A DNA stretch of 12,295 bases from a virus (taxonomy: Duplodnaviria; Heunggongvirae; Uroviricota; Caudoviricetes), in the IMG/VR virus record IMGVR_UViG_2531839233_000006; one strand, given 5' to 3'. Made by a program: the position numbers and the translations under genes. Positions 7,001 through 9,470 of this stretch are shown piece after piece. The notes under the pieces are model-generated. The model was not told the DNA's origin, ran no database searches, and was given only the letters and a program-made list of their open reading frames with translations. How positions within the stretch are numbered: position 1 is the stretch's first letter; each line of letters begins with the position of its first letter.

Positions 7001-9401
7001 CCCCCTGGCGACCAGCGGCGTTTTCCGGTGCCGGAGCTTGTCCTTTCTGGAAACTCTGGCCCTTAACCTCACCGGTTGTGGTAAAACGACCACCACGTCC
7101 GGCCTGATTTTCATCCGGCGTACGCGCCACTTCTCCCGGTAACGGATATCCCTGTCCGGGATGAATATCGCCGGGAGCGGGCAGGCGTGGACGCTCAGTT
7201 AACTCCTGTGCTGTCGGACCGGCATCACCTTCAGCCATCTGTGAACGTACAAGCTCCTCTGCCGTCGGCGCGTTGCCACGGGCAAGGCGGGCCTGTACCT
7301 CCGTATCATCCCCCGTGAAACCACGGAATCGCGGGTCACGCATGAACGCGGGCTGCTCCATCGGGTCAGCATCAGCAATACGCTCTCCGTCAGCCAGGGT
7401 GTTAATGGTTTCCGTTGCCACATCTTCAGAGAACGCAGGATTATCCATTTCAACGGCATACTGATTCTCGCCTTTCTTCACTACGGACGGTTTCAGGCCG
7501 GTGGCGGCGGCATTACGGAAAACATCACTCCCCATGGCGCTTTTCTCATCCGTGAAATAACGGTTGTCCGGGCGCACCTTCTCAATGCGTTCCGCTGGTC
7601 TGGACGCACCATTCCCGTTAATTTCAATGCGGACTTCATTCGGGTCCCGGAACCGCACCGTCGGGTAAATGCTCCCGTTACCATCCTCCGCATTTTCAGG
7701 CTGTGACTGTGCTTCCGGCGTCACTTCCTGTTGTGGGCGAATGACTTCTCGTATTGCCTGAAACTGTTGTTCTTCAGTCTCGGTGCGCCCCTCTTTCTGG
7801 CTGAGTCTGCGGTATTCCTCAAGCAGTTCAGAACGCGGCTTCGCCTTCAGCTCATTCATCACAGCCTGTCGCTTCGTCTGTTCGTCCAGTTCATTCAACA
7901 ACTGGCTGGCAGCTTCCCGGCGATGAGCTGCGGATGCGTCACCCTCTGTTGCCATATCCGCATCAGCATACTGCTCCAGAAGCTGCTCGCGATTCATGCC
8001 CTGCATGGATTCACGCTGCTGCGCCACCGGATCAACAGATTCTGGTTGCGGGGCTGCGTCGTCCTGCTGCACGGTTTCAGCATCACGCATGGCGGTTTCT
8101 TCTGCGGCCTGACGTCTGCCACGATATCCGGCAACCGCACCGAATGGAGCCCCCATCGCAGCACCAAAGGCTGCACCTTCGATCGTTGCGTCAGCCACGC
8201 CCTCCCACGGTGACACACCCATTCCGGCGGTCTCACGCAATGCCGTGTTTTCCTGATAGCGTGAATAGCCGCCCTGCGCCGCATTAATCGCCCCCTGTTC
8301 CGTGGCATTTCTGACAATGCCGCTTTTAACGGTCTTCGCTGTGCCTCGTGTCACCAGATTAAACAGTTGTGCGTCACCCAGTTTTGCCGCCATGGCATTC
8401 ACAGCCAGCAATTCAGGATCGGTTGCCAGCTGCGCGCGCACCTCATCGGCAACACGCTCTTTTGCCAGATCCATTTTCTGGCGATCAGTAAGCTGTGCGT
8501 GCTGCGGGTCGGCGTCAATGGACAAAAACGTCTGCTGAAATTTCGGTGACTGCGCCAGCTCAGAGTAATCAGCATTAAGAACAGCATCTGCTGCCGCCAT
8601 TGCACTCTGCCCCTGTGCACTTACAGTGGAATGGGTGATCAGGCCCGCCTGGAATAAATCCGGCATTTTTTTATCGACAGCTTCTGCTGCCAGTGCCGTG
8701 GCTCTTTCCGGCTGCATCCCTGCCGCGATGTATTTTTTCTCCAGCCCGGCGGTCAGCATTTTTCGCAGTGTGACATCACCCACCTTTCTAGCCACACCGC
8801 CAGCAACCATATCAGGTACAAGCGCACCAATCAGGTTTACACCCTTCGCCACCCAGACCGCAGAATCATTATAGCCTTCGGTCATCGGCGTATTCAGCGC
8901 ACGAACTGCACCCGGCGACATCTTACCGGTCAGCCATTCATCAGTGGCTTTGGCACCATCACTGACAGCCTTACCGGTTGCCTTCAGACCTTTACCGACA
9001 ATATCAGTAACCGCGTTTTTGCCATCAGGCAGGGTATCGATGACCTCATCAGCCCCCCTGCTGCCACCGGCAAAAATATCCTGCACAGTTGCGACACCCG
9101 GCAGCCCCATACGGCTGAACTCATTTAAAATACGCGCCCCTGTTTTTACCGGGCTCTGAATCATCGCATCACCGAGTCCACGGGCCATTTCCCCTGTTCC
9201 CCGGACGGACTGGGCGAAACCTTTACCCATTGTTGGCAATACATCGCCCAGGCTGAACGACGTACTGTTATCCTTCCAGCGATTCGGATCAGAGAAAAAT
9301 GCTTCATAGCTGTCAGTTTCGCCGGGTTGCTGAATGTTCAGGCTGTTACGATTCTGGTTACCGAGTTGCGCCTCAGGACGCTGTTCCTCTGAATAGGCCA
9401 T
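1020..9401 (-). CDS. Giant multidomain protein (2793 aa) with two HExxH zincin-like metallopeptidase signatures; putative virion-packaged/ejected or polyvalent effector-like protein
   Basis: Uninterrupted 8.4-kb ORF, far beyond chance. Preferred start is the ATG at 9399-9401, with GGAG 5 nt upstream and just downstream of a terminator hairpin; the ORF-track start at 9440 would put the hairpin inside codons 2-7. Motifs: HEWFH (aa 1297-1301 in track numbering, nt 5538-5552) with a downstream EMAARAFERY; HEIIHHAMEH (aa 1564-1573, nt 4722-4751); glycine zipper GAAFGAAMGAPFGAVAG (nt 8130-8180); Pro-rich degenerate repeats around aa 745-900. No Walker A/P-loop. Function is inferred from motifs only. 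Confidence 0.85.
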   Translation of the reverse strand: MAYSEEQRPEAQLGNQNRNSLNIQQPGETDSYEAFFSDPNRWKDNSTSFSLGDVLPTMGKGFAQSVRGTGEMARGLGDAMIQSPVKTGARILNEFSRMGLPGVATVQDIFAGGSRGADEVIDTLPDGKNAVTDIVGKGLKATGKAVSDGAKATDEWLTGKMSPGAVRALNTPMTEGYNDSAVWVAKGVNLIGALVPDMVAGGVARKVGDVTLRKMLTAGLEKKYIAAGMQPERATALAAEAVDKKMPDLFQAGLITHSTVSAQGQSAMAAADAVLNADYSELAQSPKFQQTFLSIDADPQHAQLTDRQKMDLAKERVADEVRAQLATDPELLAVNAMAAKLGDAQLFNLVTRGTAKTVKSGIVRNATEQGAINAAQGGYSRYQENTALRETAGMGVSPWEGVADATIEGAAFGAAMGAPFGAVAGYRGRRQAAEETAMRDAETVQQDDAAPQPESVDPVAQQRESMQGMNREQLLEQYADADMATEGDASAAHRREAASQLLNELDEQTKRQAVMNELKAKPRSELLEEYRRLSQKEGRTETEEQQFQAIREVIRPQQEVTPEAQSQPENAEDGNGSIYPTVRFRDPNEVRIEINGNGASRPAERIEKVRPDNRYFTDEKSAMGSDVFRNAAATGLKPSVVKKGENQYAVEMDNPAFSEDVATETINTLADGERIADADPMEQPAFMRDPRFRGFTGDDTEVQARLARGNAPTAEELVRSQMAEGDAGPTAQELTERPRLPAPGDIHPGQGYPLPGEVARTPDENQAGRGGRFTTTGEVKGQSFQKGQAPAPENAAGRQGETLEGDMVRRGLPSPDAQNATAPVREGLPAPDIARNVRMPQPESLPRTVRDSLPELAQQAEVRRQAGGNRDIPQPETIAPESETTVSTDREATVRGGEVRGKKIEDFGEEIKGAAKHRYAQLAETLGKTLEDRDYATQPLSKLFPKPDYAKLANEGADADTLAMIALYRSDIPAKTKHNTAGWGESIKKVRHSVSEMLNGTVSAKRLAEWMEGRMPSRYADTWQLLRTLPPSQMDRASAYRVVSGVYQAAGGKRYDPPQKLYSLRNKDNKGSNLFFSESRDELLAKAKVWFAEQEEKSQAKGDEKTAPSPDDKIRFDVYRNTRSGDIFIAYGKNKMRVRGGFKSASDARKYIDSHRDELVRHVKEMREISREEQRNATNRDRTGPERRKGNVSPEQFSDAFGFRGVQFGNYVEGPRRQADLNRAYDSLHDLAEVLNVPTKALSLNGRLGLAFGARGKGKAAAHYESGEVAINLTKGNGPGALAHEWFHSLDNYFGRYDVSNDGKITSGGDFMTEAQRVRRIFKDGRYVDAEYPVRQEVYDAFKGVIQAIKNSDMPRRSALLDKVRSKPYWSTDVEMAARAFERYVQDKARMAGVENDYLVNIRKAPEHNTDNTYAYPTNAELDGGIREAFDHLFRTLKTRETDKGVAFYSRKGVTRTPEGNLISDVNRSAEAKGSPVPQVEAVARGVMSGIKDSDLKVRVVKSQKEAEALAGELFDGYGRVHAFYRPDKREIVLVADNIPDGRTVREKLRHEIIHHAMEHVVTPAEYQTIIKTVLKTRDSDNVTIREVWRKVDASYGKESPEVQAGEFLAHMAEKQPNKFVAAWERVVALVKGVLRRTGLLKPTELNDIRLVRETIRTLGQRVREGYTPREDGAGASFQYSRSGKRDPFKVPEGEGERYRDDLARMMKSLRTTDLTVNIGRTPPVLRHLGAPDLPLVISRDTVRKATNGVKHVVPMDVIERLPELMHDPDAIYRSATERNAVVMLLDAVDKNGDPVVSAVHMKAVRSRLEINKVASVYGTENGKKLKSMEMTGLTLYRREKLSRDNLLHRGLQLPKGEHSYRGSADKILYPEDIRKGPYYSRTSSLTPEETIASRFVRQMQDKFQVLKAVQENIRKTGGKVDDSNNAYMAEELFHGKAENDLNVMKERYVQPLAKLLADYKIAQADLDEYLYARHAPERNAHIAKINPKMPDGGSGMTNAEAAEIMQRVRNSGKQAQYDRLAGIIDDMLARRRELIREAGLEENGVVDAWQNAYRYYVPLKGQDVDGVVSLPRTGKGFTIGGRESRQAMGRASRAQSPSTQAIQDLSESLIRHRKNEVGNAFLKLVQDNPDKDYWQVFTDDRPDTMRTIAERKDQETGETIREVVERPVPMAMMADRYFTTKKNGKTYYIKLHDPRLMRAMKSMGPETSNAFVRTLGKVNRFLATVNTSYNPEFLVSNFIRDVQTAVMNLKAEQGRSDGKLKGLDNLSALAVVKDSRSAMSAVYASLRGKTLTGKGAQWQKVWKEFVEDGGKTGWFNMGDLEGQQKEMDRLVSLAKGGWKGQSIGAWNSFLNLVEDANGAVENALRLSAYKHARDAGLSRQQAASLAKNMTVNFNRRGEQGALMNSLYMFANASIQGTANLVRTLGHLNGEGPLLERLRWKNLNVPQKIALAAVGAGYLLGSLNRSVAGEDDDGVNWYDKVPSHVKERNLVIMKSVFGGKAGEYWSIPLPYGYNVFFLLGHTAEGVAAGDLTASRAAGNVVGGVLGAFSPIGSETSETLSGALLKNAAPTILRPFANLAMNENFMGAQIYQENMPFGTPKPDSQLGRRSTPEAYKAFASWLNAFSGGSQYRPGAVDITPESLKFWIDYISGGTGRFISKTTDAAVKSLNGIDIPEQQVPFLGKISGEVMPYADQQKMYDRMTEIAQYHAELKSLTGAERTAFIDENNGKLSMNGLMQDTRKRLKDLRKQRDAIYADSTLSLAQQSAMVKSVERDMKIAVDRFNREYNKKVGVD

Positions 9402-9410
9402 ACAGACTCC

Positions 9411-9437
9411 ATAAAAAAACCCGGCACAATGGCCGGG
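9411..9437 (-). terminator. Intrinsic terminator between the 421-aa gene and the giant gene
   Basis: Minus-strand read: CCCGGC-CATTGT-GCCGGG (plus 9420-9437) followed by TTTTTTT (plus A-run 9413-9419). The GGAG and ATG of the giant gene follow 11 nt later. Confidence 0.7.
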
Positions 9438-9470
9438 CATCAGGAAATGGTATTAATGGAATATCGTGAA

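Follow-up and report, generated by a model that had tools for sequence, protein, structure and literature searches.

The largest gene of the Shiga toxin 2 (Stx2) phage 933W is preceded by a short GC-rich hairpin and a run of seven T residues which, at the level of sequence, have every hallmark of an intrinsic (Rho-independent) transcription terminator. We judge it likely, with a probability of about 0.7, that this terminator belongs to a late operon read by Q antitermination, where it would stop ordinary RNA polymerase and be read through by Q-modified polymerase; both the termination and the read-through are what we infer from the analysis presented here. The DNA analyzed is the 12,295-nucleotide (nt) IMG/VR virus record IMGVR_UViG_2531839233_000006, the whole of which is called the window below, and positions refer to it unless a record position is given. 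The window is Stx2 phage 933W, a Shiga toxin phage; the ~1.9 kb around the hairpin are 100% identical to Escherichia phage 933W (NC_000924/AF125520) and to many Stx1 and Stx2 short-tailed phages, with matches to this region in 186 phage records. The window is the reverse complement of the 933W record (a window position w is found in the record at 58465 - w), with its genes on the minus strand. The hairpin separates the gene for a 421-amino-acid (aa) protein, ST933Wp71, from the giant gene ST933Wp72.

Hairpin and T tract

Read on the minus strand past the TAA of the 421-aa gene, the order is ...CCUGAU-GCCCGGC-CAUUGU-GCCGGGU-UUUUUU-AU-GGAG-UCUGU-AUG (Table 1). The stem has 7 bp, six G-C pairs and one G.U (G9438.U9419, C9437-G9420, C9436-G9421, C9435-G9422, G9434-C9423, G9433-C9424, and C9432-G9425), and encloses a loop of 6 nt. 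The initial annotation had described a GC-rich hairpin and T7 tract between the 421-aa and giant genes, with GGAG and ATG within 11 nt, and all of these statements were correct on rereading; the last T of the tract is exactly 11 nt from the ATG at 9401, and a gap of 2 nt lies between the tract and the Shine-Dalgarno sequence. The hairpin lies 32 nt past the TAA, in the noncoding position expected of an intrinsic terminator. Likewise as expected, the U run is on the transcribed strand, and the opposite strand of the hairpin has no T run.

Terminators were scored with a detector of our own, in which a hairpin abutting a T-rich tail is folded with RNAfold and given a d'Aubenton-Carafa-type discriminant d, with d > 0 taken as positive. 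The coding strand of the window gave only two positive sites, and all three annotated 933W terminators were recovered. The hairpin alone folds at -11.1 to -13.1 kcal/mol, with a tail score of 4.6 to 5.0 and d = +29 to +33, and in a consensus scan the site ranks first among the terminator-like sites of the window. None of 200 dinucleotide-preserving shuffles of the 12.3-kb window (both strands) gave at least six G-C pairs together with at least seven T residues in eight. The signal is local to the hairpin and its tail rather than one of overall folding energy, because the wider 101-nt fold is unexceptional (z = -0.37).

An Rfam search of the whole window (E ≤ 1) gave no match at the hairpin site. 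The texts of Tree et al. 2014 and Sy et al. 2020 contain no Hfq-bound or 3' untranslated region-derived small RNA for this locus, and no annotation or discussion of the hairpin was found in the 933W-type records examined or in the literature (searched for ECs1241, ECs1242, and L0133). The spacer upstream of the hairpin (window 9441 to 9470, minus strand) carries a CC-TTAA motif that is invariant in all three junction variants described below, with diverged flanks; no promoter could be fitted to it.

Late operon

On the strand that carries the hairpin, the 933W record places Q (20205 to 20678), pR' (20666 to 20693), qut (20707 to 20714), and three annotated terminators farther upstream. The order past pR' is stx2AB, lysis, terminase, portal, head/tail, lom, p67 to p71, and the giant gene; only bor lies on the opposite strand. 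The hairpin corresponds to record positions 49028 to 49045, 28.3 kb from pR', and its T tract to record positions ~49046 to 49052. On the late coding strand between pR' and the giant gene (record 20.7 to 49.1 kb), the detector found 14 sites with d > 0, the hairpin being the last. Among them are sites that follow stx2B, the portal gene, the major head gene, or lom, or that precede the holin gene; annotation exists for just three of the 14, those near pR' and the tRNA genes. Because there are ~14 comparable sites between pR' and the giant gene, the arrangement at the hairpin is not special to the latter.

A crude sigma-70-like scan found no consensus promoter on the minus strand from window position 968 to the window end, nor from the lom terminator to the giant gene. 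A promoter within the intergenic region was considered and rejected, as no acceptable -35/-10 pair was found there by scan or by eye, and the 2 nt between T tract and Shine-Dalgarno sequence leave no room for one. The late promoter pR' of Stx phages is controlled by Q antitermination (Sy et al. 2020; PMC7547250). In phage phi24B, reverse transcription-quantitative PCR showed the giant gene (CM7) to be upregulated on induction, while upstream lom (CM18) was expressed equally in lysogens and induced cells; lom is uncoupled from the phage regulatory circuit, a pattern that the authors found surprising (Riley et al. 2012; PMC3342100).

These data bear on the proposal in the initial annotation that the giant gene is expressed by terminator read-through, due either to antitermination or to partial termination that sets a low stoichiometry. 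The dependence on read-through holds in that the gene must be transcribed through the hairpin, given the 2-nt gap, the absence of a promoter in the scans, the presence of Q, pR', and qut upstream, and the induction-only expression in phi24B. The low-stoichiometry alternative gained no support, the protein being reported as abundant in virions.

Conservation

Relatives were collected from IMG/VR in two sets. The close set comprises 46 loci with 74 to 100% identity in the 421-aa protein, whose junctions occur in three sequence variants (variant A being the 933W form). For the distant set, a profile-guided scan gave 36 further loci with 22 to 41% identity in the same protein; 29 distinct distant loci, which include Aeromonas and Vibrio phages, were counted.

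In 28 of the 29 distinct distant loci, a terminator with d > 0 lies within 270 nt past the stop codon of the 421-aa homologue, compared with a background rate of 0.04 per 270 nt (33 sites in 218.8 kb of coding strand). At least five to six unrelated sequence types can be told apart among these hairpins, and all 28 have the T tail on the coding strand. Where the sequence runs into the long downstream open reading frame (ORF), a Shine-Dalgarno sequence and ATG follow the tail, mostly within 15 to 35 nt and at up to ~80 nt in Vibrio phages. The sole exception, locus L092, has a different downstream gene context, with a strong hairpin without a T tail followed by a convergent ORF. That the hairpin sequence has been replaced while its place and orientation were kept argues for function, and of the comparisons made, this positional conservation among distant relatives carries the most weight.

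Examples come from Vibrio and Aeromonas phages. In Vibrio phage D171, the homologue of the 421-aa protein has 467 aa (29% identity in an aligned segment of 108 residues, E = 3e-12), a 2800-aa gene comes next, and the junction between the two reads GCCCGC-CTAGT-GCGGGT plus TTTCTTTTG; Vibrio phage 1.205.O has the same arrangement. In Aeromonas phage phiARM81mr, a 466-aa homologue is followed by AGCCCCGA...TCGGGGCT plus TTTCTTTTG. This 66-nt junction folds at -27 kcal/mol (z = -4.0), and GAGGA and an ATG come next, opening a frame homologous to the giant N terminus. A contig scan with the giant N terminus returned one 801-bp fragment labeled Xanthomonas pisi, which was uninformative.

Two further features of phiARM81mr were noted. 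Its gene p69 is annotated ~576 codons short (L052 4803 to 6654, corresponding to KT898134 ~47785 to 49636): the frame is open from L052 4803, GAGGA and the ATG at 4926 lie directly past the terminator, and the N terminus aligns with the 933W giant protein at 27% identity (E = 2e-20). Inserted among its virion structural genes are p58 and p59 (L118 24972 to 26605), which code for a reverse transcriptase of the retron type and for a "23S rRNA-intervening sequence protein."

A second terminator precedes ST933Wp68 in the window (Table 1), and most distant loci have an equivalent ~1.4 to 1.6 kb ahead of the gene for the 421-aa homologue. With this site (12153 to 12132) and the hairpin (9438 to 9419), the four-gene block p68 to p71 is bracketed by terminators. 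The terminator pair has been kept across Escherichia, Aeromonas, and Vibrio phages, with the hairpin sequence wholly replaced.

In the close set, stem pairing is kept in 63/63 cells (100%) across nine distinct junctions; three of the seven pairs vary, and none is broken. Pair 1 takes the forms G.U, G-C, and A-U; pair 6, altered by a double change, those of G-C and A-U; and pair 7 those of C-G and U.G. Two pairs are altered on both sides, and the observed covariation score was reached in only 1 of 500 shuffles, in a test whose power is modest, with only ~3 lineages represented. Shifting the 3' partners by 1 to 3 columns drops pairing to 29 to 43%. These compensatory changes lend modest support to the view that the hairpin has been maintained in evolution. 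The hairpin, Shine-Dalgarno sequence, and start codon lie in a 100-nt block that is 84% identical between variant C and 933W, compared with 53 to 64% for the preceding 300 nt and 66% for the following 100 nt. Relative to loci L037 and L048, window 9337 to 9736 is a mosaic, in which that same contrast between the hairpin/start block and the last 300 nt of the 421-aa gene is accompanied by only ~43% identity in the protein's C terminus; the pattern suggests a recombination boundary adjoining the terminator.

Start codon of the giant gene

The giant gene starts at ATG 9401 and encodes 2793 aa. An alternative start, ATG 9440, would make the hairpin region coding (2806 aa) and the inverted repeat incidental. 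This ATG is the first in-frame one of the long ORF, which is open from there, and the RefSeq and phi24B annotations use the upstream start. The initial annotation had regarded it as an unlikely start, and the comparison bears this out to the point that the coding alternative is effectively refuted. ATG 9440 is present only in variant A and reads ATA in variant B and ACG in variant C, so that it is lost in two of the three Stx phage variants; no Shine-Dalgarno sequence precedes it; and the T tract of variant C is 7, 8, or 9 nt long, which shifts the upstream reading frame. This T7/T8/T9 variation and the loss of the upstream ATG mark the hairpin region as noncoding, and neither a conserved start codon nor a conserved frame was found for an N-terminal coding extension.

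For the start at 9401, GGAG-TCTGT-ATG is invariant in all 46 related viral loci, and the giant homologues in all 46 align from residue 1, the Met at 9401. The PHROG profile phrog_616 has 2793 positions and is aligned from residue 1, and the N terminus of the Aeromonas homologue deviates from this register by no more than 3 residues. The 9401 start is also the one annotated in KU238068 and in the Sakai genome (2793 aa in Sakai). The most direct evidence is a clone of the equivalent gene of phage Sp5, ORF80, which was made with the forward primer GGC-GGATCC-CGGCCATTGTGCCGGGTTTTTTTATG and which complemented the deletion and restored lysogen formation (Mondal et al. 2016). Mapping of the primer to the window places the start of the insert at 9435, so the clone complements without ATG 9440. 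Since variants, homologues, PHROG 616, annotations, and the ORF80 clone all support 9401, the RefSeq 2806-aa and phi24B 2807- to 2811-aa models are 13 codons too long; the extra codons, MPGHCAGFFYGVC, are the terminator hairpin and T tract.

Features and neighboring genes

The coordinates of the features discussed are listed in Table 1.

Table 1. Features of the junction between the 421-aa and giant genes and of its surroundings, in window coordinates
Feature	Positions	Strand	Details
Giant gene	1020..9401	minus	2793 aa; 933W L0133/ST933Wp72, Sp5 ORF80/ECs1242, phi24B gp47; PHROG 616
ATG start of giant gene	9399..9401	minus	True start
Shine-Dalgarno sequence GGAG	9407..9410	minus	5 nt (TCTGT) before ATG; annotated ribosome-binding site in KU238068
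T7 (U) tract	9413..9419	minus	Abuts stem; T9419 also able to close stem; AT comes next
Terminator stem-loop	9419..9438	minus	5' arm 9438-9432 GCCCGGC; loop 9431-9426 CAUUGU; 3' arm 9425-9419 GCCGGGU
Upstream in-frame ATG	9438..9440	minus	Start used by RefSeq NC_000924 (2806 aa); overlaps 5' arm, its G being the first stem base
N-terminal peptide, start at 9401			(M)AYSEEQRPEAQLGNQNR
N-terminal peptide, start at 9440			MPGHCAGFFYGVCMAYSEEQR
421-aa gene	9471..10736	minus	ST933Wp71/Sp5 ORF79/ECs1241; phrog_601; essential tail-assembly gene; hairpin follows its transcript
Stop codon (TAA) of 421-aa ORF	9473-9471	minus	
Second terminator	12132..12155	minus	Stem CCCTGC-TCCG-GCAGGG 12153-12138; T6 12137-12132; then GGGGG and ATG 12113 of ST933Wp68

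Pfam recognizes domains LPD5, LPD1, MuF_C, and LPD38 in the giant protein, which marks it as a "polyvalent" virion protein. In phage Sp5, ORF80 (the giant gene) and ORF79 (the 421-aa gene) are both essential. Virions of phi24B contain the giant protein (gp47), which is described as abundant and has been proposed to be an ejection protein (phi24B preprint). Just past the stop codon of the giant gene, a GC-rich hairpin, GCCCCG-tacggaagtg-CGGGGC (window ~986 to 1009, minus strand), has no T tail and might be a stabilizer or a Rho-related signal.

Other observations concern the neighborhood and its annotation. The 83-aa protein encoded at window 10747 to 10998 (minus strand) is annotated as "bacteriocin" but matched only glycine-zipper/membrane motifs, below the Pfam cutoffs; the gene has a syntenic counterpart in the Aeromonas phage, and its product is less likely to be a bacteriocin than a small protein of the membrane or virion. 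In AP012534 (Stx2a_F765) and KP682386 (PA36), IS629 lies within the 1.9-kb stretch (window 8900 to 10800) and divides a gene into halves that are annotated as pseudogenes; an essential virion gene may be defective in these prophages. In phage phi191 (NC_028660; L051), the 421-aa and giant genes are annotated as several short coding sequences, which may reflect frameshifts or decay; its junction is identical to that of 933W.

Mechanism and alternatives

In the mechanism that we favor, polymerase not modified by Q at pR'/qut would reach the junction, the RNA hairpin would form, and the enzyme would pause on U7 and release the transcript. Candidate sources of such polymerase would be the constitutive lom moron, weak internal promoters, and read-in transcription, and lysogens would thereby keep the 8.4-kb giant gene silent. 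Once the phage is induced, Q-loaded polymerase starting at pR' would ignore the hairpin and transcribe the giant gene as a late gene, with translation from ATG 9401 by way of the GGAG that lies 2 nt past the U tract. Consistent with this mechanism, Q, the late promoter, and qut are on the same strand as the hairpin, the genes are collinear, and the scans detected no promoter in the gap from terminator to giant gene.

Several points weigh against it. The text of Sy et al. 2020 (PMC7547250), which includes Term-seq of strain Sakai, does not mention the hairpin site. The lom gene has its own terminator (record 45452 to 45468) and no promoter is predicted downstream, so it is in doubt which unmodified polymerase the hairpin would stop. 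The Sp5 ORF80 clone keeps T7 and a 6-bp stem (BamHI gives ...TCC before CGGCC) between Ptac and the gene and still complemented, so any block appears leaky to unmodified polymerase, in a sensitive qualitative assay with a strong plasmid promoter. The 29 distant loci are not phylogenetically independent and represent a handful of lineages. In the Vibrio phages L050 (3537 to 3619) and L053, the ~80 nt from terminator to ATG contain TATAAT and a match of the form TTCACC-17-TATGAT; this suggests that the Vibrio giant gene may have its own promoter, with a plain transcription unit boundary there rather than antitermination.

The hairpin could instead regulate dosage or mRNA stability, terminating part of the transcription even in lytic growth, protecting the 3' end of the p68-p71 message from exonucleases, or both, and such a role may coexist with a terminator overridden by Q. 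In either case, giant-gene mRNA would be made in a constant proportion below that of the upstream virion genes, a proportion that a T-tract length of 7 to 9 could tune. Partial terminators so placed are a well-known means of setting dosage in other phages, as with T-phi of T7. The position kept at the 421-aa/giant boundary across lineages with unrelated hairpins, the second conserved terminator that brackets the four-gene block, the polymorphic T-tract length, and the terminators after the portal and major head genes would all fit attenuation. However, Q-modified polymerase is generally highly terminator resistant (PMC7547250), the giant protein is described as abundant in phi24B virions, and the same hairpin design precedes many other late genes, so the giant gene is not singled out. 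On this balance we consider attenuation or message protection unlikely, if worth keeping in mind. In a broader form of the idea, the two position-conserved terminators would be a dedicated control device of 933W-like podoviruses, metering or insulating the giant ejection protein through partial termination of even antiterminated polymerase or through mRNA stability, with tuning by a T tract of 7 to 9; this too is offered tentatively and is doubtful.

A role in translation is improbable. The U tract would then be an S1-binding enhancer rather than part of a terminator, and the hairpin would either protect the 5' end after processing or take part in a switch that hides the Shine-Dalgarno sequence. 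The U tract does end 2 nt from GGAG, the hairpin is inside the expected 30S footprint, and in the minimum-free-energy fold of 933W an upstream UCC pairs with the GGA of the Shine-Dalgarno sequence. However, a G+C-rich stem followed directly by a U run is the signature of a terminator, and across the distant lineages the spacing from tail to Shine-Dalgarno sequence ranges from ~2 to ~80 nt while hairpin and T tail are constant. The outer helix covering the Shine-Dalgarno sequence, predicted for 933W, is absent from the folds of variant C, and the sequestering switch was rejected as not conserved.

Relation to known systems and significance

The closest known counterparts are the Q-overridden late terminators of lambdoid phages, namely lambda tR' and those downstream of it and the three 933W sites between pR' and stx2. 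The hairpin shares their anatomy, and it belongs to the same phage, strand, and transcription unit as the 933W trio, with a discriminant of +33 compared with +22 to +37 for the annotated sites. As with these terminators, the gene downstream of the hairpin is induction dependent. Unlike the annotated 933W terminators, the hairpin is 28 kb from pR', is unannotated in the records examined, abuts the ribosome-binding site of the next gene, and has no known stable short RNA such as 6S or StxS.

Intrinsic terminators between cotranscribed genes, directly before a very long or low-demand gene, also serve as stoichiometry attenuators within operons, including the Escherichia coli rplL-rpoB attenuator, rpsU-dnaG T1, and phage T7 T-phi after the capsid gene. 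The hairpin shares this placement. Those attenuators act partially on ordinary polymerase by design, whereas the operon of the hairpin is served by terminator-resistant polymerase. Moron terminators, such as the one after lom in lambdoid phages (Juhala et al. 2000, as cited in PMC4104026), are likewise intrinsic terminators embedded in the late region, and the lom terminator is 3.6 kb upstream of the hairpin. A moron terminator was considered for the hairpin and rejected; no promoter is predicted, and ORF79 upstream, an essential gene, has been conserved together with the giant gene in phages of Escherichia, Aeromonas, and Vibrio.

The hairpin is real and useful for annotation but not surprising, being one of ~14 such signals in an operon known to be read with Q, and its conceptual value is modest. 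It adds an unannotated regulatory signal to the map of 933W and Sp5 and fixes the start codon of the largest gene in a medically relevant phage, where the N-terminal extension of the RefSeq 933W and phi24B models is really a terminator. It would also account for the published puzzle of an 8-kb gene that is induction dependent although it lies downstream of constitutive lom (PMC3342100). Since ~14 intrinsic terminators lie within the 37-kb late operon, Q antitermination is needed along its whole length and not only at tR'. For the podovirus family with giant polyvalent virion proteins, the conserved position of the two terminator sites hints at selection for tight silencing or for dosage of this module.

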